This document shows, piece after piece, positions 4,806 through 63,327 of a stretch of DNA of 64,000 nt. The DNA comes from Chiloscyllium plagiosum (lineage: Eukaryota): positions 3,379,514-3,443,513 of the forward strand of contig NC_057753.1 of assembly GCF_004010195.1 (NCBI RefSeq), written 5' to 3'. The notes below the pieces were generated by a model that saw only the letters and a list, made by a program, of their open reading frames with translations, ran no database searches and had not been told where the DNA came from. Position 1 is the stretch's first letter. Each line of letters starts with the position of its first letter. A program made the translations under genes and the position numbers.

Positions 4806-5716
4806 TCAACACTTTAAAAGTTTAAGAAACAATCTCTGCGGATATTTTAACCCATTCTTTAACTCGTCTCTGAATTTATTCTGGGTTCCTGCATAAATAA
4901 ATGGATTTATACAGGAACTCAGAAACTGAAGCATATACCCGGTTTCCTCCAGGATGAAGGATGAATTGCTATAATCTGAAACGGAGTAATAAGTAACTTT
5001 TGCAATTCGGACATAGAGTACTGTTACAAAAAATACCGAATAAAGCAGAATAGAACTACCTGAAATGCCAAAAAGTAAGATAATAGATTTTTTCCGTTTC
5101 TCCACCTCTGGGTCACTTTGATTCTCTCCATTGCTCAGGGTGCGGAGTCTCTTGCGGGCTCGGTTGGCCGCTAAAATATGTCTGACAGTCAGTGCATTGA
5201 GCAGTAAAATCAGAACAAATGGGAGGCAGGGGACGAGAATGGATCGAATCAAATCGTATGCAGCCCAGGCCTGTGAGGTAGTAAATACTAATTTTGGAAC
5301 ACAGAACCATGGAACATCATTAATTATGTACAGTGGTTCAAATGTAAAATAGAAAAACGCATTTTTGAAGCAGCTCAGCGTGCAGACTCCCCCTATAACC
5401 CATTTCGCTGTTACTTCTGTACAGTATTTTAGTTTCAGCTTCTGGCAACAAATGGCTATAAATCGGTCAAAGGTGAAAGCGACCGTTAACCAGGCAGAAC
5501 AATCTATAACTGAAGAAATAAAGACAACGCGGAGACTGCATATCGGTGTGATGGATAAGAAGCTGAATGGGAAATAAATGCCAGCATTCCGGTTTATAAT
5601 CACATTAACTATAATGACCAAAAGATCTACTAGCGCCATGGATACCACGTAGTAAATGATGCATGCGGAGAGACCACATCTTCTTCGCTGTAAGATTACG
5701 ATCACTGCCAAATTTG
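4806..5716 (-). CDS. GPR139/GPR142-like class A GPCR, paralog 1, exon 2 (spliced protein 326 aa)
   Basis: Hydrophobic TM segments, DLL in TM2, WLTVAFTFDRFIAIC in TM3, TM3/ECL2 cysteines (TPIC, PWFC), NPFIY in TM7. Acceptor ttctctctgttacag|CA at 5717/5716 gives in-frame P-A-N-L-A-V with exon 1. Confidence 0.95.
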
Positions 5717-7163: not shown

Positions 7164-7233
7164 CTGGTATCCCGATAGCCGCAAGCAAATTATAGTAAAT
7201 GGAAAACAGCAGACCTTTTGGTGATATGTGCAT
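7164..7233 (-). CDS. GPCR paralog 1, coding exon 1 (MHISPKGLLFSIYYNLLAAIGIP+G)
   Basis: ATG at 7233, 70 nt, donor CCAG|gtaaag. Phase-1 intron 5717-7163 (1447 bp). Same exon length and phase in all three paralogs. Confidence 0.92.
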
Positions 7234-7283: not shown

Positions 7284-7318
7284 TTTATACATGAGTCAGG
7301 CTCAAGAGATTTAATTAG
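7284..7318 (-). promoter_or_regulatory. Proximal promoter of paralog 1: TATA box, O/E-like site and homeodomain site
   Basis: Minus strand CTAATTA-AA-TCTCTTGAG (7318-7301) and TATAAA (7289-7284), 51 nt upstream of the ATG. Position conserved in paralogs 2 and 3. Confidence 0.7.
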
Positions 7319-7499
7319 ATGGTTGAAACGTTTACAGTAATCAGCATGGTTGTAAAAAAGAACAGATAAATGCAGCTGCAGTTGGGCGTGTTTAGATGGA
7401 TTCAAACTCGAATTGGAAATGTCTAGGGGCTGCTAAATGCTTTAACAATGTTCCTTTTTCAGGTTAATGCCCTGGGTTTTCATCTATTCCATCTATTAA

Positions 7500-8884: not shown

Positions 8885-9523
8885 CCGAGTGTTAATTTTT
8901 CCTGCTTTCCATTTTTTTTTCAAATTAACTCTGTGCTCAACAATAATCGGATGAGCTATGTAATAACGCAACGGGCAAAGGCATTTTCACGCATAACAAG
9001 TACGAAAATACAGAAATTGGAAACCAAGAGATAAGTAACATTTGCAATTCACACGTAATTTTAAAAATGCTGAATGAAATAACTTGAACCTGTCCGACAT
9101 AAGAAAGAGTCAAACAATGCAATATTTGCATTTCTTCAAAGCTGGATACCTTTAATTCTGAATTTTTCTGGGCCCAGAGTCTCGTACAGTCTTTATTGTG
9201 CATGAGAATATGACTGACCCTCAGAGCATTGAACAGCCAAATAAAAATAAATGACAGAGGATATGTTAACATTACGAGGATCCAGTTATATACAGCTCAT
9301 AATTGTGACTAATAATATATTGATTTCGTTTGACACAACAAGAGTATATTGTAATTCATAAAGAAGACTTGTCCAAAGTACGAGAGGATGTTTACAGCAC
9401 GATTCAATAAACAGGCAGTTTCTACTGTCACAGCTGTGGTTTTCTTGATATCATGCATCGTTTCTGGAAGCATATAGCTACTGAACAGTCAAAGGTGAAA
9501 ACAGTTACCACCAGAGAGAATAA

Positions 9524-11010
9524 TGGATGTAGGTTTGCTTGCTGAGCTGCAAGGTCCGTTTCCAGACGTTTCGTTACTCTACTAGCGAACATATTCAGTG
9601 GGCCTCAAACGAAGCAATGCTGAAACTTCCGGCTTTCCATTTGTATGTTTGGGTTTCACTGTGTTGTTGATGTAATTTCCTGTGGTGGTGTTATTTCATG
9701 AGGTGAAGTCACTTACTGTTCCTTTTCTCAGGGAGTGGTAGATGGGGTCTAATTCGATGTGCTTGTTGATAAAGTTCCAGTTGGAATGCCATGCTTATAG
9801 CAATTCTCGTGCATGTCTTTGTTTGGCATGTCCTAGGCTGGATATGTTGTCGCAGTCGAACCTCATCCGTATGTGAGGATACTAGTGAGAGTGGGTCACG
9901 TCTTTTTGTGGCTAGTTGATGTTCACATATCCTGGTGGCTAGTTTTCTGCATGCTTGTCCAATGTAGCGTTTGTTACAGTCATTCCACGGTATTTTGTAA
10001 GCGACATTAGTTTTGCTCGTTGTCTGTATAGCGTCTTTCAACTTCATTAGCTGCTCTTTTAGTATGTTGGTGGGTTTGTGGGCTACCATGATACCAAGGG
10101 TTCTGAGTAGTCTGGCAGTCAGTTTCGAGATGTCTTTGATGTAGGGGAGAGTGGCTAGGGTTTCTGGACGTGTTTTGTCTGCTTGTTTGTGTTTGCTGCT
10201 GAGAATTCAGGGGACTGTGTTCATTGGGTACCCATTCTTTTTGAATACACGGTATCGGTGATTTTTCTCTGCACTGCGTAGTTCCTCTGAGCTGCAGTGT
10301 GTATTGGCCCGTTGAAATAATGTTCTGATGCAGCTTCGTTTGTGGGTGCTGGGATGATAGCTTCTGTAGTTCAATATTTGGTCCGAATGTGTTGTTTTCC
10401 TGTAGATGCTGGTTTGAAGATCCCCGTTGGCTGTTCACGCTACTGTGAAATCTAGGAATGGTAGTTTGTTGTTGCTTTCCTCCTCTTTCGTGAATTTTAT
10501 GCCAGCAAGGGTATTATTGATGGTCTTGAAGGTTTCCTCTAAGTTGTTTCGTTTAGGATGGCAAAGGTGTCATCCACGTAGCATACACAAAGTTTGGGTT
10601 GGATGGTTGGCAGAACTGTTTGTTCAAGTCTCTGCATTACTGCCTCTGCTAAGAACCCTGATATCGGAGATCCCATGGGTGTTCCGTTTGTTTGTCTGTA
10701 GGTTTTGTTGTTGAAGTTGAAGTATGTGGTAAGGCATAGGTCCACTAGCTTGATGATACTGTCCTTGTTGATGAAGTTAGTGGTTTTTGGTGTATATATC
10801 TTTGGGTCTTCAAATATGTAGTCAGTGTTTCCTTGGCTAGTTTGATGTTGATTGATGTAAACAGGGATGTTACATCAAAGGAAACCACAATTTTATCCTC
10901 TTCTATCTTCGTGTCTTTGAAAGTCTTCAGGAATTCTTGGGTGGAGCGGAGTGAACCTTGCAGCTCAGCGAGCAAACCTACATCCGAAACCTAAACCTGA
11001 GCTTAGAACA
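9524..11010 (-). mobile_element. Penelope-like element (RT and GIY-YIG), decayed, with an inverted terminal segment
   Basis: SFDVTSLFT, GTPMGSPISG, YVDDTF and KRYIGQ..RKLATRI.EHQ motifs. 9526-9555 (gatgtaggtttgcttgctgagctgcaaggt) recurs as a reverse complement at about 10955-10985. Confidence 0.92.
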
Positions 11011-11209
11011 AAAAACAAACTACAGACTGAATTGAAGGAAAGAAAACTAAATGGAAGACAAACACACAGAATAAAGTTTACTATCACAGCTGCGAACATG
11101 CTGACGAGATCTGCCACCTCCATGGAGACTAAATAAATCGTCGCACATCTGGAGATGCCTTACATTCCCTGGGCCAGAATCATACGCACGGCAGAATTAG
11201 TTGCTTTAA

Positions 11210-16730: not shown

Positions 16731-19098
16731 TATGTGGATGTACCCACTGGAGAAGGTGCAGAAACTTGACCTACTCTTGGGAAATAAGGCAGGGGGGCAG
16801 GTGACTGAGTTGTCAGTGGAGGAGCACTTTGGGGTCAGCGAACATAATTCTATTCGTTTTAATATAGTGATGGGATAGGATAGACCAGATCTGAAAGTTG
16901 AAGTTCTAAAGTGGAGGAAGGCCAATTTTGATGGTATTCGGCAAGAATTTTTAAAAGCTGATTGAAGGCAGAATAGTCGCAGTAAAGGAACGGCTGGAAA
17001 ATGGGAAGCCTTCAGAAATGAGATAACGAGAGTCCAGAGAAAGTACACTCTTGTTCGGGTGAAACGAAAGGCTGGTAGGTATAGGGAATGCTTAATGATT
17101 AAGAAATTGAGGGTTTGGTTAAGAAAAAGAAGGAAGCATATGTCAGGTATAGATAGGATAGATCGAAGGAATCCTTAGAAGAGTATAAAGGCAGTAGGAG
17201 TATACTTAAGAGAGAAATCAGGAGGGCAAAAATGGGACACAATATAGCTTTGGCAAATAGAGTTAAGGAGAACCCAAAGAGTTTTAGCAAATACATTAAG
17301 GACAAAAGACTAACTAGGGAGAGTATAGGCCCCCTCAACGACCAGCAAGGAGACCTTTGTGTGGAGCTGCAGGAGACGGGGCAGGTACGAAATGAGTATT
17401 TTGCATCAGTATTTACTGTGGAAAAGGACATGGAAGAGATAGAATGTAGGGAAATAGATGATGACATCTTGAAAAATGTCCATATTACTGTGGAGGAAGT
17501 GCTGGATGTCTTGAAATGCATGAAAGTGGATAAATCCCCAGGACCTGATCAGTGGTAGCCTCGAACTCTGTTGAAAGCTAGGGAAGTGATTGCTGGGTTT
17601 CTTACTGAGATATTTGTATCATTGATAATGACAGGTGAAGTGCTGGAAGACTGGAGGTTTGCTAACATTGTGCCACTGTTTAAGAAAGTTGGTAAGGTCA
17701 ATCCAGGGATCTATAGACCAGTGAGCTTGATGTCATTAGTGGGCAGTTTGTTGGAGGGTATCCTTAGGAACTGGATGCACATATATTTGGAAAGGCATGT
17801 ACTGATTAGAGGTAGTAAACAAGGCTCTACGCATGGGAAATCATGTCTCCCAAACTTGATTTAGTTTTCTTTGAAGAAGTAACAAAGAAGATTGATGAGG
17901 GCAGAGCGGTAGATGTGATCTATGTGGACTTCGGTAAGGCGTTTGACAAGGTTCCCCATGGGAGAATGGTTAGCAAGGATTGTTCTCATGGAATACAGAG
18001 AGAACCTGCCATATGGATACAGAACTGCCTCAAAGGTCGAAGACAGTGGGTATTGGTGGAGGGTTGTTTTTCAGACTGGAGGCCTGTGACCAGTGGAGTG
18101 CCACAAGGACCAGTGTTGGGTCCACTACTTTTCATTATTTACATAAATGATTTGGATGTAAGCACAAGAGATATAATTAGTAAATTTGTTGATGACACCA
18201 AAATTGGAGGTGTAGTGGTCAGCGAAAAAGGTCACTTAAGATTACAACAGGATCTTGATCAGATGGGCTGAGAAGTGGCAGATGGAGTTTAATTTCGATA
18301 ATTAAAGTGAGGTGCTGCATTTTGGGAAAAGAAAATCTTAGCAGGACTAATACACTAAATGGTAAGGTCCAAGGGAATCTTGTTGAAGAAAGAGACCTTG
18401 GATTTCAGGTTCATAGCTCCTTGAAAGTGGAGCTGTAGGTAGACAGGATAGTAAAGAAGGCATCTGGTATGGTTTCCTTCACTGGTCAGAGTATTGAGCA
18501 CAGGAATTGGGAGGTCATGTTGTGGCTGTACAGGACATTGGTTAGGCCACTGTTGGAATATTGCGTGCAATTCTGTTTCGTTCCTATCCGAAAGATGTTG
18601 TGAATCTCGAAAAGGTGCAGAAAAGATTTACAAGGATGTTGCCAGAGTTTGAGGACTTGAGCTATAGGGAGAGGTTGAATAGGCTAGCGCTGTTTTCCCT
18701 GGAGCGTCGAAGGTTAAGGGGTGAACATATAGACGTTTATAAAATAATGAGGGGCATAGATAGGATAAATAGACAAAGTCATTTCCTTGGGTTGGGTGAA
18801 TCCAAAAGTAGAGGGCATAGGTTTAGGGTGAGAAGGGAAAGATATAAAAGAGATCTAAGGGGTATTTTGTCACTCAGAGGGTGGTATATATATGGAATGA
18901 GATGCCTGGGAAGTGGTAGAGGCTAGTACAGTTGCAACATTTAAAAGGCATCTGGTTGGATATATGAATAGAAAGGGTTTTGGAGTGATATGGGCCGGGT
19001 GCTGGCAGATGTGATTAGATTGGGTTGGGATATTTAATCGGCATGGTCGAGCTGGTCCGAAGGGTCTGTTTCCGTGCTGTACATCTCTATGACAATAT
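16731..19098 (+). mobile_element. 5'-truncated CR1 LINE (end of endonuclease, RT, 3' UTR)
   Basis: KSPGPDQ, YRPVSL, VDVIYVDFGKAFDKVPH, SGVPQGPVLGPLLF, KFVDD. Tail ctctatgac. Interrupted by stops and frameshifts. Confidence 0.95.
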
Positions 19099-21655: not shown

Positions 21656-22486
21656 TTGTCCTGGTAATCATTAAAAACACGGAAATAGAAAAAACACACC
21701 GGATCATCAACGCCACACTCACAAGAATCCGATTCACGAGAGAAGAAGAAAAGGATAGAAAACTCCCATTTCTAGACGTGATGGTACAGAGAACACCAGA
21801 CGGAGAATTCACTACAGGAGTATACAGGAAAGCCACACACACAGACCAAGTCCTAAACTATGAAAGTAACCACCCCAACACACACAAACGAAGCTGCATC
21901 AGGACACTATTCAAAAGGGCCACAACACACTGCAGTACACCAGGACTGCAAGAAGACGTCGACCTGGACCCAATATACCAACCACTACAGCGGACAGCTG
22001 AAACTGACAATAAGGACTGCACAAAACACTATATAGGACAAACAGGAAGACAGCTAACAATCTGCATACATGAACATCAACTAGCCATGAAACGACACGA
22101 CCAGCTATCCTTAGTAGCCACACACGCAGACAACAAGCAACATGAATTCGACTGGGACAACACGACTATCATAGGGCAAGCCAGACAGAGAACAGCCAGG
22201 GAATTCCTAGAGGCATGGCATTCATCCACAAACTCCATCAACAAACACATCGACCTGGACCCAATATACCAACCACTACAGCGTACAGTTGAAACTGACA
22301 ACCGGAAGCGACAGGGACAGACCACTATAAACCCCGGAGGAGACATCAAAGAAGCGCTTCGCAGGAGGCTCTCAAGGCACTGATGATGTCGCCTAGCCAG
22401 GGGACGAAACGTTTGCAACAAAAACTTCCAGCTCGGCGAACAGAACCACAACAACGAGCACCCGAGCTACAAATCTTCGCACAAAC
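21656..22486 (+). mobile_element. Young, 5'-truncated, internally deleted Penelope-like element
   Basis: LPFLDV, VYRKATHTDQ and GIY-YIG (HYIGQTGRQL) motifs. 15-bp TSD tttgtcctgataaca at 21641-21655 and 22487-22501. Confidence 0.95.
22377..22416 (+). ncRNA. Minimal type I hammerhead ribozyme motif in the Penelope pseudo-LTR
   Basis: gca-CTGATGA-t-gtcgcct-agcc-aggggac-GAAAC-GTT-tgc: intact core, stem II with one mismatch, 3-bp stem I, palindromic ACGT stem III. Confidence 0.75.
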
Positions 22487-37329: not shown

Positions 37330-38205
37330 CAGATGGGTCTAGATTTGTTCGGCACGTGGATAGTGCTGAAGAATGTTGTGTGCTACAGAGGGACATCGAT
37401 ATGCAAATGAGTTTAATGAGGAAATGTGTGATGACGTTCACTTCAGAAGAAGTAAAAGGAATGCAGAGTACTGGGCAAATGGTAAGATTCTTGGCAGTGT
37501 TGATGAAGAGAGAGATCTCAGTGTCCTGGCGCATAAATCCCTGAAAGTTGACAGCCAGGTTAATAGGGTCGTTTTGAAGGTATATACTTTGTTGACATTT
37601 ATTGGCAGGGGAATTGAGTTTCGGAGCCACGAGATCATGCTTCAGCTGTGCAAGGCATTGGCAATTCCACACCTGGAGTATTGCGTGCAGTTCTGGTCTC
37701 CACATGATAGGAAGGATGTGGACGCTTGGGAAAGGGTTCAGAGGAGATTCACGAGGGCGTTGCCTGGTATGGAAAGAAGATCTTACGAGGCAAGGCTGAC
37801 GGAACTGAGACTGTTTTCGTTGGAGAGAAAACGTTGAGAGATGACTTAATCGAAATATATAAGCTGATGAGATGTTTAGATAGGGCGGAGATTGAGAGCC
37901 TTTTCCCTTAGATGTTGAAGGCTAACACGAGGGGACATATCTTTAAATTGAGGGGTTATAGATTTAGGACAGATATTCGGGGGAGTTTCTACACTCAGAG
38001 AGTCGTAGGAGTGTGGAACGGCCTGCCTGCAATAGTTCTAGACTCGCCGACAGTAAGGGCATTCAAATGGGCATTGGATATACATATGGATAATATTGAT
38101 ATGGTGTAGGATAGATGGGCACCATATATTTTCACAGGTCGGCGCAACTTCGAGGGGCGAAGAGCCTATACTGCGCTATAACGTTCTATGTTTTATGTTC
38201 TATAG
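37330..38205 (+). mobile_element. CR1 3' fragment nested in the older CR1
   Basis: PHLEYCVQFWSPHDRKDV and FYTQRVVGVWNGLP. Tail (ttctatg)n, similar to the element at 276-1980. Confidence 0.9.
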
Positions 38206-48994: not shown

Positions 48995-49875
48995 CTATGG
49001 ATATTTTAATCCATCCTTTAACTCGTCTCTGAATTTATTTTGGATCCCCGCATAAATGAACGGATTTATGCAGGAACTCAGAAACTGAAGCATATACCCG
49101 GTTTCCTCCAGGATAAAGGATGACTTACTATAGTCAGAAACTGAGTAATAAGTAACTTTTGCAATTCGGACATAGAGCACTGTTGTAAAATATACTGAAT
49201 ACAACAGAACAAAACTCCCTGAAATGCCGAAGAGCAAGATAATGGACTTTTTCCGTTTTTCCATCTCTGTATCACTCTGATTCTCTCCACTGCTCAGGGT
49301 ATGGAGTCTCCTGCGGGCTCGATTGGCCGCTAAAATATGTCTGACTGTCAGAGCATTGAGCAGCAAAATCAGAATGAATGGAAGGCTAGGGACGAGAATG
49401 GAACGAATCAAATCATATGCTGCCCAGGCCTGTAAGGTACTAAATACTAATTTTGGAACACAGAACCAGGGTACGTTATTAATTGTGTACAGTGGTTCAG
49501 ATATAAAATATAAAAACGCATTTTTAAAGCAACTCAGTGTGCAGACGCCCCCTATTACACACTTTGCTGTTAGTTCAGTACAGTATTTCAGTTTCAGCTT
49601 CTGGCAACAAATGGTCACAAATCGATCAAAGGTGAAAGTGACCGTTAACCAGGCAGAACTATCTATTACTGAATATACAAGGAAAACACGGAGAATGCAT
49701 ATTGGTGTGATGGATAAGAAGCTGAATGGGAAATAAATACTAGCAGTCCGGTTTATAACCACTTTAAAAAAGATGACCAAGAGATCTGCTCCAGCCATGG
49801 ATACCACGTAGTAAATGATACATCCAGAAAGACCACATTTTCTTCTGCATAGTATTATGATCACTGCCAAGTTAG
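48995..49875 (-). CDS. GPR139/GPR142-like GPCR, paralog 2, exon 2 (spliced protein 316 aa; 10 C-terminal codons lost)
   Basis: Close paralog of 4806-5716 with DRF and NPFIY. Acceptor ttctctcggttacag|CT at 49876/49875. TAG where paralog 1 has CAG. Confidence 0.93.
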
Positions 49876-51109: not shown

Positions 51110-51179
51110 CTGGTATCCCAATAGCTGCAAGAAAATTATAATACATGGAAAACAACAGGCCTTTTGGTGAGATGTGCAT
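51110..51179 (-). CDS. GPCR paralog 2, coding exon 1 (MHISPKGLLFSMYYNFLAAIGIP+G)
   Basis: ATG at 51179, 70 nt, donor CCAG|gtaaag. Intron 49876-51109 (1234 bp). Not reported by the ORF track. Confidence 0.92.
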
Positions 51180-51229: not shown

Positions 51230-51264
51230 TTTATACGTGAGATGGGCTCAAGGGATTCAATTAG
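51230..51264 (-). promoter_or_regulatory. Proximal promoter of paralog 2: TATA box, O/E-like site and homeodomain site
   Basis: Minus strand CTAATTG-AA-TCCCTTGAG (51264-51247) and TATAAA (51235-51230), 51 nt upstream of the ATG. Confidence 0.72.
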
Positions 51265-53070: not shown

Positions 53071-53139
53071 GTGGAAGCTCGATTGTTGGAAGAAAGGAAT
53101 AGTAAATGACAAACACTAAACTTTTGGTAATGAATGCAT
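53071..53139 (-). pseudogene. Orphan, inactivated exon 1 of a fourth GPCR paralog (MHSLPK/LVFVIYYSFLPTIELP)
   Basis: ATG CAT TCA TTA CCA AAA G-T TTA GTG TTT GTC ATT TAC TAT ... CTT CCA C aligns with the 70-nt exons, with a 1-bp deletion (69 nt). Donor G|GTA is now C|ATA. Upstream context gctcaaaacattgaccagaaATG resembles paralog 3 gctcagaacatctgtcagaaATG. Confidence 0.85.
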
Positions 53140-55049
53140 TTCTGGTCAATGTTTTGAGCATGTCCTTCATTATGTTCACGGATGGTGACGTTTTCTCTTC
53201 ATGTATTTCTTCATGGAGAAAATTAATTGATTTTGCTCGCGACATCAATGACACGAATGGAAAGGGGGAAGAGTAACAAAAAGTATTTTTTTCCAATATG
53301 ATAAAAAGCTGGTCACACTGTTCTCTTGTTCACCTAAAACAAATCGTTCAATTACAAACAGAAGATTTAGTGTGGACGTCAAAATTGGAATCGAAGAATT
53401 ATTACATTTAGCTCCTCAACGGTGAATTCAATGATGATTGCACAATTTGCAATTGAGAATGAATATACTGATTAAATAAATTGATAAACTTCAGATTTAA
53501 TTGGCACTTATAAGCACGTTCATACGTTTTTCTGCATTTTGTTTGCAAAGATATCCAGTTCAGTAATGTTACAAGTCGTCCTCGAATGTGAAATTCTGCT
53601 TAGGTTTGGCATGAGTTAGTGCAGTCCAGATTATTTATCTTCTGTGTGTACGGGTTCATATGATGGTGGATACCTTCGCAATGGAAATGTTCATTCCTGC
53701 ATAACTGCACCAAATTCCAATTCAGCATGATTAAATTCTGCGATGGCAGCGAAAATCACTACTGCCAGAGTTAATAATGATTAAAATGAAACAAGCTTAG
53801 TTTGATTTTCTTAAAAGTCTTGCTCAATGTCATTAATTACAGTGCAGCAATACCCGCTACAACACTATAATAATCAATGTAAACATGTTCAGATCAGCGC
53901 AGGTACGATTATGGTCAATGTAACCAACGTAGAAGATATTAATTTAGTATTACCAAGTCAACTACAGTACATGACTATATTTAGTGACAACATGTACCGG
54001 TTAAATTGTCACATGAAAAGTGCATAGATTTAGTTCAGTGTCCTTGAATGTTGTCTAATATATTCCATTTTCATGAGCTGAGCTGACACGATGTTATTCA
54101 GCACGATTTTTTCCAGTGTAGAAAGATTTACGGCAAATATTTCCTGTCAGTGTGGGGTACAGCTCAGAATCAAGGTCAAGTTCAGTTTTAAATAACAGCA
54201 ACATCAGCTGGAATTAATGTTCAAGGTCATCAGCACCAATTGCCATATGTTGTCAGACCTGATGAGCATTTTCATAAGTTAACATTCTTCATTTTAAAAG
54301 TCTTAAACCATCTATACTCTGTGTTATCTGTTCATTTGTACAGGCATAGTTCAGCACATATTAAGTCATAATGTATACAGTTAGATGAACAGAGCACTTC
54401 ACAGTTTATACAGATCAAGTTATGTAATGTTTGATTTGACGTGGTTTTCTCTTCCGTCTGCTCTGCATGTATTGCGAAAACCTTCAGTTCATTCACTTCC
54501 CACCTCAGTGGTTGGCTGTTCAGTTATTCTTTGACAGTTCTGGATGCCTGGTCTTCATACTTTAATATTCACCAAAGATATTTGAACACTCTGCTCTTGA
54601 ATACACAAGCAAACGCATTGCTTTCAACGTGTTGCTTTGAATACAAATCAAATAAATTTCATTGCTCATCACATTCGTAAATTTATATTTTCAAGTCATC
54701 AACGTCTGCTTTAATTGCACTTCATCCATCATATAAATCTGTTTCCAAGTGTCATAGCCATGTCTGCATTTTGTGGTATGTGTGCATTTAAGTTGTTGCA
54801 GTTCTAATCCTTCAATTTATCTGACATCTGCATCAGCGTCCTTCTATGCATATAACACCTTAACTTCAAGATTCCTCCCTCCTCACGCCATTATTTCTTG
54901 ATCTTTGTACTTTCCAAATGTTTCCCAATTTTGAATGCATTCGTCTGGCCATAGACCACATCCCATTATTCACTGTAACTGTTACCTCCAGACGTACTTG
55001 CACCACAGATATCAGTTTTCTGCAAATTGGATTTCGTCTGTGAGATCAA

Positions 55050-56869: not shown

Positions 56870-59800
56870 GTCGAGGCGGGTTTCATCGAGCAGTACGTCA
56901 ACCATCCAACTCAGGAAGGGGCCATTCTGGCCCGGCGAGGTGGTTCAGGTTTCAGTCGGGAATTATTTTGGAAATACAGATCTCAATTCAGTAAGTTTTA
57001 GAATACTCATGGACAAAGATGAGAGTGGTCCTAATGGAAGGATATAGAACAATACAGTGGAGAACAGTCTCTTCGGCCTTCGATGGAGCACCGATCTATG
57101 AACTAATCTAAGCCCACCCCTACACTATCCCATCATCATCAATGTGCTTATCTAAGGATTGTCTATATCTCCCTAATGTGGCTGAGCTAAGTACATTGGC
57201 AGGAAAAAAAGAGAATACTGCAGAGGAGAAGAATAAGATACAAGATATTATACTAGAAAGCATCGAGGTTAATAAGGAAGAGATATTATCAATTCTAGAA
57301 GGAGCAAAAGTAGACGAGTAGCTCATTTTTTTTAGATTAGATTAGATTACATTACAGCGTGGAAACAGGCCCTTCGGCCCAACAAGTCCACACCAACCCG
57401 CCGAAGCACAACCCACCCATGCCCCTACATTTACCCCTTACCTAACACTACGGGCAATTTAGCACGGCCAATTCACCTGACCAATTCATTTGCCCATAGT
57501 GTTATTTGTATGAGTCAGGGGTAAATGCAGGGGAACGGGTTTGGATGGGTTACTGTGTGGAGAGTCAGTGTGGACTTGGGCTGAAGGGCCTGTTTCTATA
57601 CTGTAGGGAGCCGAATCTAATACCTATAGAAACCTTGAGGTTTTCCTTTATTCTACCTACTAAAGACTGTTCATGTCCTCTCTTTGCTCTTCTTAAGTCT
57701 CTCTTTAAATCCTTCCGAGCCAATCTGTAACTGTCCATCACCTTATCTGAACCATCTTGTATCATTTTGGGGGAAGGCCGACTGTACAAAAATTCAGCAG
57801 GAGCTGTGAAATATGGATTGGTAGCAGCTGTTTGAAGGTAAATCGACATTTGACATGTGAGAGGTTGATTAGAGTGCAAGAGAGACATGTTCCTTTGAAA
57901 ATGAGGGATAGAAATGGCAAGATTAGGGAACCATGGAGGACAGCTGAAATTGTGAGACTAGCTAAGAGGAAAAAGGAAGCATATATAAGGCCTCGGCGAC
58001 TGAAGACAGACGAAGCTTGGGAAGAATATTGGGACTGTAGGACCAATCTGAAACGAATAATTGAGAGAGGTAAAAGTGGTCATGAGTTATTTTCAGCAAA
58101 CAGGGTTAAAGAAAACGCCAAAGCCTTTATTCATCTTTAACGACCAAAAGTGTAACTAGACAAAGGGTTGGCCCACTCAAGGACAAAGGAGGAAAGTTGT
58201 GCGCAGAGGCAGATAAAATGGAAGAGATTCTTACTGTGTACTTTGCATCTGTATTCACCGAGGCGAGTGAAATGGTAGATATTGAGGTTAGGGATCGATG
58301 TTTGATTGCTCCAGGTCAAGCCAGCAGAAGTAGAGAGGAAGTGTTGGGTATTCTAAAAGGCATTAAGGTAGACAGGTGCACAGGTCCAGTCAGGATCTAT
58401 GTCAAATTACTGAGTGAAGCGAGAGGGGAAATAGCTGGGGCCTTAACAAATATATTTGCAGCATCGTTGAACAAGGATGAGGTCCCGTAGGACTGGAGAA
58501 GTGTTAATGTTGCACCCTTTTTCAAGAAGGTTTATCAGGGATAATACAGGTCATTTCAGACTGGTGAGCCTGACGTCAGCAGTAGGGAAGGTGCTGGAGA
58601 AGATACTGAGGTGTAGGATCTATTCCCATTTGGAAGAAAATGGGCCTATCAGTGACAGGCAACATGGTTTTGTGCGTATAGCCCTGGTCACCACATTATG
58701 AAAAGGATGCGGGTGCTTTGGAGAGGGTGCAGAGGAGGTTCACTCGGATGTTGCCTGGTATGGAGGGCACTCGCTGTAGATAGTATGAATAGGTTAGGAT
58801 TATTTACATTATAAAGACAGAAATTGAGGGGGACTTGATTGTGGTCCACGAAATCATGAAAGGTATAGACAGGTTGGATAGCAAGAATATTTTTCACAAA
58901 GCGGGGGACTCAATTACTAGGGGTCATGAGTTCAAGCTGAGTGCAGGGAAGGTCATATCTTTCCAACTTAATACAATTCGGAGAGGAGGTGGCAAAGTTA
59001 ATTGATGTGGGAAAAGCTGTAGATGTCATATACATGGGATTCTGTAAGGCGTTTACTAAGGTTCCCCATGGTAGACTGGTGGAGAAGGTGAAGTAACATG
59101 GGCTTCAGGGTGTACGAGCTAGACGAATAAAGAACTGGCTGAGCAGCAGGAGACAGAGAGTCGGAATTGAATGGATTAGGAAGTTTTCAGAAGACACGAA
59201 GACGGGTGGAGTACCAGATAGTGAAGGGGACTGTCAGAGAATGCAGCAGAATATAGATAGTTTGGAAAGTTGGGCAGAGAAATGACAGATGAAGTTCAAT
59301 CCAGGCAAGTGTGAGTTGATGCATTTTGTAAGATACCGTTCAAGAGCTAACCATATGGTAAATGGAAAGGTTCTGGGGAAAATTGTTGTACAGAGAGATC
59401 TGGGTGTTCAGGTCCTTTGTTCTCTGAAGGTGGCAACGCAAATCGATAGAGTAGTCAAGACGGCATATGGCATGCTTGTCTTCATCGGACGGGGAATTGA
59501 GTACAAGATTTGGCAGGTCATGTTACAGTTGTATAAGACTTTGGTTTGGCCACATTTGGAATACTGCGTAGAGCTCTGGTCACCACATTATGAAAAGGAT
59601 GTGGATGCTTTGGAGAGGGTGCAGAGGCGGTTCACTCGGATGTTGCCTGGTATGGAGAGCACTCACTGTAGATAGTATGAATAGGTTAGGATTATTTACA
59701 TTAGAAAGACAGAAGTTGAGGGGTACTTGATTGTGGTCCTGAAATCATGAGAGGTAGAGACAGGTTGGAGAGCAAGAATATTTTTCACAGACCGGGGACT

Positions 59801-60687: not shown

Positions 60688-61574
60688 TCAATACTTAAAC
60701 ATTTTAATAAATAGGTTCAAAGTAAATTTCTTTAATTCATCTCTAATTTTGTTCTGCGTTACAGCATATATAAATGGGTTGATGCAGGAACTCAATAACT
60801 GGAGCATATATCCAGTTTGTTGCAAATAAAATGTGGATCCTGAGGAATAAGTAACATTCGCAATTCGAACGTAGAGAATGTTTACAAAAAATAACATATA
60901 TAGTAGAATGAAAGTGCCTGAGATGGAGAAGAGTAAAATAATGGACTTTCTCCGTTTCTCCATCTCTGGGTCACGCTGAGTCTCTACAATTTTCTGAAGC
61001 TGGAGTCTCTTACGGGCTCTGTTGGCCAAGACAATGCGTCTCACAGTCAGTGCATTTAGTATTAAAATTAGAACAAAAGGGAGGCATGGATTTAAAATAG
61101 AACGGATCCAGTCATATGCAACCCAAGCAGGTGATGTATAACATACATCCTTTATGCTGCACAGCCAGGGTGTATTGTTGATTACGTATCTGGGTTCAAA
61201 TTCAAAATATATGAAAATATTTTTTATACCGCACAGAGTAGACACAACTCCTATCATCCACGCTGCCACCTTCCTGGTGCAATATTTTACTTTCAGGTTG
61301 TGGCAAGATATAGCCACAAATCGATCAAAAGTAAAAGCGACAGTTAACCAGGCGGAATTGTCAATAACTGCCAGATTTAATGCAGCACGAAAACTGCACA
61401 CTGGTGTGATAGAAAGGAAACTGGATGGGAAATAAATCCCAACAATGCGATTTAAAATCACAGCTGTGACCATGACCAGGAGATCTGTTGCTGCCATTGC
61501 CACCAAGTAGTAAGTGATGCAGCTCGAGAGACCACAGGTTCTTCGAGATAGGATTGCAATCACTGCTAGATTAG
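60688..61574 (-). CDS. GPR139/GPR142-like GPCR, paralog 3, exon 2 (spliced protein 318 aa)
   Basis: LVAMAATDLL, WLTVAFTFDRFVAISC, PCLPF, NPFIY. Acceptor tctttctttcttccag|CT at 61575/61574. Confidence 0.95.
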
Positions 61575-63159: not shown

Positions 63160-63229
63160 CTGGAAGACCAATATCTGCAAGGACTGGATAATAAATGGCA
63201 AAGACCAAACCTCTTGGTATCTCATGCAT
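63160..63229 (-). CDS. GPCR paralog 3, coding exon 1 (MHEIPRGLVFAIYYPVLADIGLP+G)
   Basis: ATG at 63229, 70 nt, donor CCAG|gtaaaa. Intron 61575-63159 (1585 bp). Confidence 0.92.
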
Positions 63230-63280: not shown

Positions 63281-63327
63281 TTTATACATGGTTGCATATG
63301 CATTTCAGACTTCAGGGAGTTAATTAG
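63281..63327 (-). promoter_or_regulatory. Proximal promoter of paralog 3: TATA box, O/E site and homeodomain site
   Basis: Minus strand CTAATTA-AC-TCCCTGAAG (63327-63310) and TATAAA (63286-63281), 52 nt upstream of the ATG. Plus-strand CTTCAGGGA matches YYYCARRRR exactly. Confidence 0.72.

Follow-up and report, generated by a model that had tools for sequence, protein, structure and literature searches.

What the three G-protein coupled receptor (GPCR) genes of this locus are, and which cells would read the short motif lying in front of each of them, is the question addressed here. An earlier note on the same DNA of Chiloscyllium plagiosum had described a homeodomain site followed at fixed spacing by an O/E (EBF) site and a TATA box in all three promoters, and had proposed that the genes use an olfactory-neuron regulatory code. 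The window, by which we mean the whole 64-kb stretch of DNA that was analysed, carries on its minus strand three two-exon GPCR genes, each with a coding exon 1 of 70 nt, a phase-1 intron and an exon 2 that runs from mid-TM1 through the protein end. The features were located as follows:

4806..5716, minus strand: gene 1 coding exon 2 (whole protein 326 aa, class A GPCR)
7164..7233, minus strand: gene 1 coding exon 1 (ATG 7233; 23 codons + 1 nt; first half of TM1; phase-1 donor)
7284..7289, minus strand: gene 1 TATA box (predicted start about 25-30 nt downstream)
7300..7309, minus strand: gene 1 EBF/O-E-like 10-mer (from family conservation and fit to the O/E consensus)
7310..7311, minus strand: gene 1 spacer, fixed 2 nt with free sequence (from the spacer scan; identity 0.25)
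7312..7317, minus strand: gene 1 homeodomain site, TAATTR type (family column identity 0.71)
7373..7378, minus strand: gene 1 E-box CAGCTG, absent from the earlier note (enriched, 15/67 promoters)
9126..11198 (11198-11016 and 9499-9126), minus strand: decayed family exon 2 fragments upstream of gene 1 (tblastn E down to 5e-9)
48995..49875, minus strand: gene 2 coding exon 2 (protein 316 aa)
51110..51179, minus strand: gene 2 coding exon 1 (ATG 51179)
51230..51235, minus strand: gene 2 TATA box
51246..51263, minus strand: gene 2 composite (homeodomain + 2 nt + EBF-like)
53072..53254, minus strand: dead fourth promoter and exon 1 (nhmmer E 3e-16; ATG 53139)
60688..61574, minus strand: gene 3 coding exon 2 (protein 318 aa)
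63160..63229, minus strand: gene 3 coding exon 1 (ATG 63229)
63281..63286, minus strand: gene 3 TATA box (22 nt past the EBF site; family mode 10-11)
63309..63326, minus strand: gene 3 composite

The fourth exon 1, located 1.9 kb upstream of gene 2, has a premature stop and has lost its splice donor; its promoter has lost the TATA box and retains a decayed composite (53225-53208) whose distance, 78 nt, is the modal one. The stop codon of gene 2 (48995-48997, minus strand) lies 10 codons before that of gene 1, which trims the C-terminal tail at its end.

A pattern search of the window returned the composite in exactly three places, on the minus strand only (starts at 7318, 51264, and 63327), and the TATA-containing 13-mer likewise had exactly three occurrences (7293, 51239, and 63290). 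The distances given in the earlier note were all right: the spacer is 2 nt in each of the three genes, and 51, 51, and 52 nt separate the end of TATAAA from the ATG in genes 1, 2, and 3, respectively. Gene 3 keeps the motifs though its upstream DNA aligned by blastn to neither gene 1 nor gene 2, the latter two being 74% identical to each other across 496 nt. The gap between the EBF site and TATA is 10, 10, and 22 nt, and the 12 additional nucleotides of gene 3 are therefore real; the reading of this difference as one helical turn was rejected, as TATA lies 10-11 nt past the EBF site in 29 of the 38 scored TATAA promoters of the family and gene 3 alone has 22. The O/E pattern YYYCARRRR, ascribed to the three sites, is exact only at the gene 3 site, and by eye the sites of genes 1 and 2 have one mismatch each. 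The 17-letter composite occurs 958 times in 3.56 Gb, compared to 882 for the control pattern, which corresponds to about 0.02 expected per 64-kb window. Since the three window paralogs are not independent of each other, the real test is a family-wide one.

For this purpose we used 103 stretches (100 fetched and the three window genes), 67 of which had exon 1 within range, whereas no exon 1 was found in the other 36. The resulting promoter sample is non-random, consisting mostly of closer relatives of gene 1, with the remainder coming from one divergent query. The strict composite was present in 30/67 promoters between -160 and -40 (200 shuffles: mean 0.1, maximum 2), and elsewhere in only one of 65 far-upstream windows and none of 67 intron windows. 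In a scan of spacer lengths, a 2-nt spacer was seen in 25 promoters and a 1-nt spacer in 4, and every other length gave 0-2. Scored separately, the EBF core was found in 27, the homeodomain site in 49, and TATA in 44 of the 67 promoters, against shuffle means of 0.4, 13.8, and 15.6. Upstream of these elements, an E-box was detected in 15/67 promoters (shuffle mean 1.8, maximum 7), and the word TGTTTR in 19/67 (shuffle mean 7.8), the latter also in 14/67 introns. Near -145 to -120, family promoters tend to show an E-box and then a T-rich forkhead/Sox-like word, the second of which is less clearly enriched.

Motifs shared by duplicated genes could be passive leftovers of duplication or gene conversion with no selected function, given that all copies descend from one promoter, that genes 1 and 2 still align over about 500 nt, and that the short pattern is barely more frequent in the genome than its control. 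This explanation was examined by a footprint analysis based on a motif-blind alignment of 46 promoters, with 987 pairs having fourfold-degenerate sites that averaged 0.47 identity. The identity was 0.71 for the homeodomain site, 0.66 for the EBF site, and 0.78 for TATA, in comparison to 0.38-0.47 for the flanks and 0.47 for silent sites, whereas the 2-nt spacer between the two sites was randomised (0.25). Thus, the motifs are more conserved than the neighbouring sequence, and the earlier proposal withstood the check that it had itself named as a way to refute it. A spacer whose length is fixed and whose sequence is free is expected of a site for two factors. Moreover, the cassette persists between genes that are about 49% identical in protein, and it has decayed in the dead copy in the window. 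The passive explanation is largely refuted by these results, and we consider it very improbable.

The EBF-like site is conserved as a palindrome around a variable centre, with a half-site matrix of T.58 C.92 Y.89 C.89 Y.79, and the site fits the published O/E consensus in the form of the MatBase entry TCCCyngrga, as given in table 1 of PMC3247239. STAT, AP-2, and ZNF143 were rejected by eye, against their consensus sequences, as alternative identities of the site. The cassette is a set of conserved promoter elements: a homeodomain site, a 2-nt spacer, an EBF-like palindrome, about 10 nt, and TATA. It is not uniform across the family. The strict composite is lacking from 37/67 promoters; one whole divergent clade keeps EBF and TATA with the homeodomain half gone, and in a few promoters an EBF site is not clearly recognisable. 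The earliest-branching shark clade with promoter data in our tree has the same layout in two of three promoters.

The short composite alone is barely enriched genome-wide and its signal is local to the family; with a loose TATA added, it gave 607 matches vs 664 for the control, i.e. no useful enrichment. The full signature, a pattern derived from the sampled family promoters, had 69 matches in the genome vs 6 for the reversed control. Among the first 30 of the 69 matches, 26 were located directly before a family exon 1, and the remaining four look like chance. Six of these 26 were already in the promoter set and 20 were outside it, including 8 that belong to a previously unsampled subfamily. 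The signature is thus specific for the family, and the placement of the composite in promoters rests on these full-signature matches, TATA included.

As to the identity of the receptors, the three window proteins matched only PF00001 (7tm_1) in Pfam at E<=0.001, and none of the three matched the olfactory receptor (OR) protein profile; with 7tm_1 as the only match, the genes are not ORs. In a homologue search, which gave 1733 proteins, 119 of the 120 listed bear shark names, with one unnamed; the usual label among the listed homologues is 'probable G-protein coupled receptor 139'. Ten further representatives came from sharks, skates, and rays. Relatives at 26-33% identity were seen in coelacanth, salamanders, teleosts, and amphioxus (including P0223, P0234, P0240, and P0259). 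In a quick tree a salamander protein, on a long branch, groups with the shark family, which suggests an old jawed-vertebrate lineage that expanded in sharks and rays. Atlas look-alikes were members of the same family and FMRFamide-receptor-like GPCRs.

The best relative with a solved structure is human GPR139 (E 4e-10). The true GPR139 of this shark is a separate locus (L169), to which the family is 22-29% identical, and it falls outside the family in a quick maximum-likelihood tree that carries long-branch warnings, L169 being itself a long branch. Due to the low identity and this tree placement, the family appears to be GPR139-related and not orthologous. GPR139, a vertebrate orphan receptor activated by Trp/Phe, has in common with the family its database label and a phase-1 intron before the TM1 asparagine. 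The residues of the GPR139 agonist site are mostly not retained: among 62 members, H187 is kept in 3, N271 in 4, W241 in 23, and F109 in 14. The column of GPR139 H113 is occupied by aspartate in 58/62 members, with variable adjacent pocket columns; the shared aspartate is a possible counter-ion for an amine or peptide ligand.

The family comprises at least 267 loci in this genome, as counted from two protein searches (140 + 130 scored loci, 3 shared); this is a lower bound taken from the best candidates, and it may include allelic copies on some small contigs. In-frame stops were present in 35/270 scored family matches (17 + 18). By its size, its clustering, and its pseudogenes the family looks like a repertoire. 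The dN/dS ratio calculated for 12 independent pairs was 0.23 overall, with none above 1 in any segment. The outward-facing segments outer TM3, ECL2, and outer TM6/ECL3 were more variable (0.30-0.32) than inner TM3/ICL2, inner TM5/ICL3, and inner TM7/helix 8 (0.12-0.21), and in the same pairs outer TM5 (0.20) and outer TM7 (0.12) were not.

Four sequencing runs were matched to gene 1 at 85% likeness, and in the runs matched no RNA read fell on gene 1 exon 1 or its promoter. The 12.96 million records covered of the single-cell RNA run X5 (about 2% of that run; tissue and library chemistry unstated) included no read >=95% identical to gene 1; short matches came from a few diverged paralogs, with reads one-sided in strand. 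The lack of gene-1-like reads argues against DNA contamination and therefore indicates that members of the family are transcribed in some tissue. At one place about 15 reads accumulate, with 15 starts among them, and their flanks exactly match a gene on contig C9 (L106) that has the composite and a TATA-like word. The run X7, which we guess to be RNA and which may hold DNA, gave only short paralog pieces. A catshark study named no GPCR among the top 50 genes of its olfactory library, and no V2R there either. As many paralogs would be expected in a nose sample, the few seen in X5 may reflect expression elsewhere; the X5 reads may lean slightly toward some expression outside the nose, and they neither show nor exclude an olfactory one.

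The X5 reads also bear on the possibility that these genes encode a receptor repertoire of immune cells or leukocytes. EBF1 acts in B-lineage cells, and EBF1 with E-box and forkhead factors makes up the B-cell code, so that the upstream E-box and forkhead-like words of the family promoters would be E2A and FOXO1 inputs; a single-cell sample with only a few paralogs transcribed is also unlike a broad repertoire. On the other hand, a homeodomain site fixed in position next to EBF has been documented in olfactory neurons, and we know of no B-cell equivalent of such a composite. The TGTTTR word is frequent in introns as well, and X5 had no read assignable to gene 1 at the above threshold. Taken together, we regard an immune role as rather unlikely.

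As a control from known receptors we took 14 first exons from a V2R cluster (contig C13, L206-L219). A family score of 14 was reached by 0/14 V2R promoters, compared to 35/67 family promoters with training rows included. The best V2R scores, 13.1 and 10.2, belong to two near-duplicates, and the background maximum was 11.4. Thus, the known olfactory receptors of the shark do not share the cassette, judging by V2R promoters, in which the EBF-like excess is weak (p=0.003). A weaker control was provided by three V1R/ORA loci, of which two have by eye an apparent upstream intron; no family-type composite was found within about 1.4 kb of them. One V1R/ORA locus (L168) has the family EBF-like 10-mer reversed, about 311 nt before the ORF and upstream of a TATA-like word. 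In V2R promoters, TATATA was found near the ATG in 9/14, in comparison to 4.5% of background tiles, and GGGA-containing words resembling EBF half-sites were enriched.

The absence of the cassette from V2R promoters would fit a different explanation, in which a real EBF + homeodomain promoter, passed down from a GPR139-like neuronal ancestor, would be used by neurons or sensory cells of another kind (chemosensory cells of skin or gill, lateral-line or electroreceptor cells, or brain neurons). Neurons of the habenula or striatum type, and hair cells as well, contain EBF together with LIM-homeodomain factors. The phase-1 TM1 intron common to the family and true GPR139 points in the same direction, as does the expression of GPR139 in habenula, hypothalamus, and striatum, described in PMC5430874. 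However, a family whose copies number in the hundreds, diversify, and undergo birth and death is more in line with an outward-facing sensory repertoire than with a brain receptor, and we hold this alternative to be possible and on the whole unlikely.

The closest known system is the Lhx2/Ebf composite of the mouse Greek Islands, which are OR enhancers (Monahan 2017, PMC5608512; J element, PMC7804114). The shark composite is alike in having a homeodomain site directly 5ʹ of EBF, in the order and orientation of the sites, and in their rigid spacing. It differs in the spacing itself, with 1 bp between the Greek Island sites (also by eye in the probe and enhancer sequences) and 2 nt in the shark. 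The published mouse composite pattern was not enriched in family promoters beyond shuffles (16/67; shuffle mean 10.4, maximum 18). The location differs as well: mouse OR promoters are depleted of Greek Island composites, which are found in intergenic enhancers, whereas the shark composite lies about 10 nt before each TATA. The view of adjacent homeodomain and O/E sites as a hallmark of mammalian OR regulation thus stands for mouse enhancers, with their 1-bp separation, and fails for OR promoters. The shark cassette works like the Lhx2/Ebf composite but is not the Greek Island motif. According to Monahan (PMC5608512), two added bases impair fusion-probe binding, and a 1-nt shift may therefore matter; a later preprint describes co-binding of Lhx2 and Ebf in vitro without cooperativity.

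The proximal promoters of mouse OR genes (Young 2011, PMC3247239) likewise have O/E, homeodomain, and TATA elements near the start and belong to a large clustered GPCR family; they are mostly without a juxtaposed composite, and TATA was called in only 39%. The shark genes, unlike mouse ORs, are non-OR genes with a coding first exon. With the OR, TAAR, V1R/ORA, and V2R/OlfC genes of cartilaginous fishes they share tandem clusters and birth and death (Syed 2023, PMC10116579), and with the shark V2R genes a TATA close to the ATG; they differ from these known chemoreceptor families in belonging to another GPCR lineage, in being several times as many as the V2R cluster seen here, and in the cassette, which V2R promoters lack.

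In the mechanism that we propose, the palindrome would be occupied by an EBF/COE dimer, and a homeodomain factor of LIM or Emx type would bind 2 nt upstream of it, with the fixed spacer presumably reflecting the relative placement of both factors on the helix. The dimer and the homeodomain factor would act beside TBP, about 10 nt further on, and transcription would begin about 25-30 nt past TATA, leaving a short 5ʹ UTR. Each duplicated gene would carry its own enhancer-like composite, and the cassette would drive the family as chemoreceptors in what are probably olfactory sensory neurons.

EBF and homeodomain factors act in other cell types too. The olfactory cell type is suggested by a grammar which, as far as we found, is otherwise documented only in mouse olfactory neurons, by family size and turnover, and by the reported gap between the olfactory organs of sharks and their known receptors: cartilaginous fishes are reported to have only about 10-50 known olfactory receptor genes despite large olfactory organs (PMC10116579). 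The same paper explains the small repertoire as discrimination traded for sensitivity, and states that the V2R co-receptor labels neurons at moderate frequency only while TRPC2 labels all. The promoter is olfactory in type and a role in olfactory neurons is plausible, and the interpretation in the earlier note is partly supported. With a probability of roughly 0.55, we take the cassette to be a core promoter of EBF/homeodomain type that drives a chemoreceptor repertoire not recognised before, likely in olfactory sensory neurons.

For a wider claim we see about even odds, namely that sharks and rays possess an unrecognised olfactory family that numbers hundreds of GPR139-derived class A GPCRs and exceeds their known olfactory families combined, in which each gene has its own promoter-embedded homeodomain/EBF composite; the rigid grammar of mammalian OR enhancers would then date to early jawed vertebrates, and the 'tiny shark repertoire' would be an artefact of four-family counts. 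In the literature, judged by titles and abstract openings and with most subscription papers outside the coverage, we found no description of the family or of its promoter. If the olfactory reading is true, this would be a new vertebrate chemoreceptor family, sharks would have many more smell receptors than now counted, and an Lhx2/Ebf-type grammar would operate from inside promoters. If the genes are expressed elsewhere, what is left is a GPCR repertoire of very large size that has a defined promoter code and awaits an explanation. As the family numbers at least 267 loci and has an olfactory-type promoter, the question is directly testable in existing tissue RNA-seq.

Two minor observations concern sequences related or adjacent to the family. 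A scattered subfamily with 83 matches, left out of the gene count, gives reads in run X5; the four copies inspected (L202-L205) were all frameshifted or partial, and the subfamily may be an amplified pseudogene lineage. In the window itself, the short ORFs at 2254-2988, 17232-18271, 37373-37837, 59289-59675, and 21781-22383 are sequences that we take by eye to be fragments of reverse-transcriptase/endonuclease genes from LINE-type and Penelope-type retroelements.
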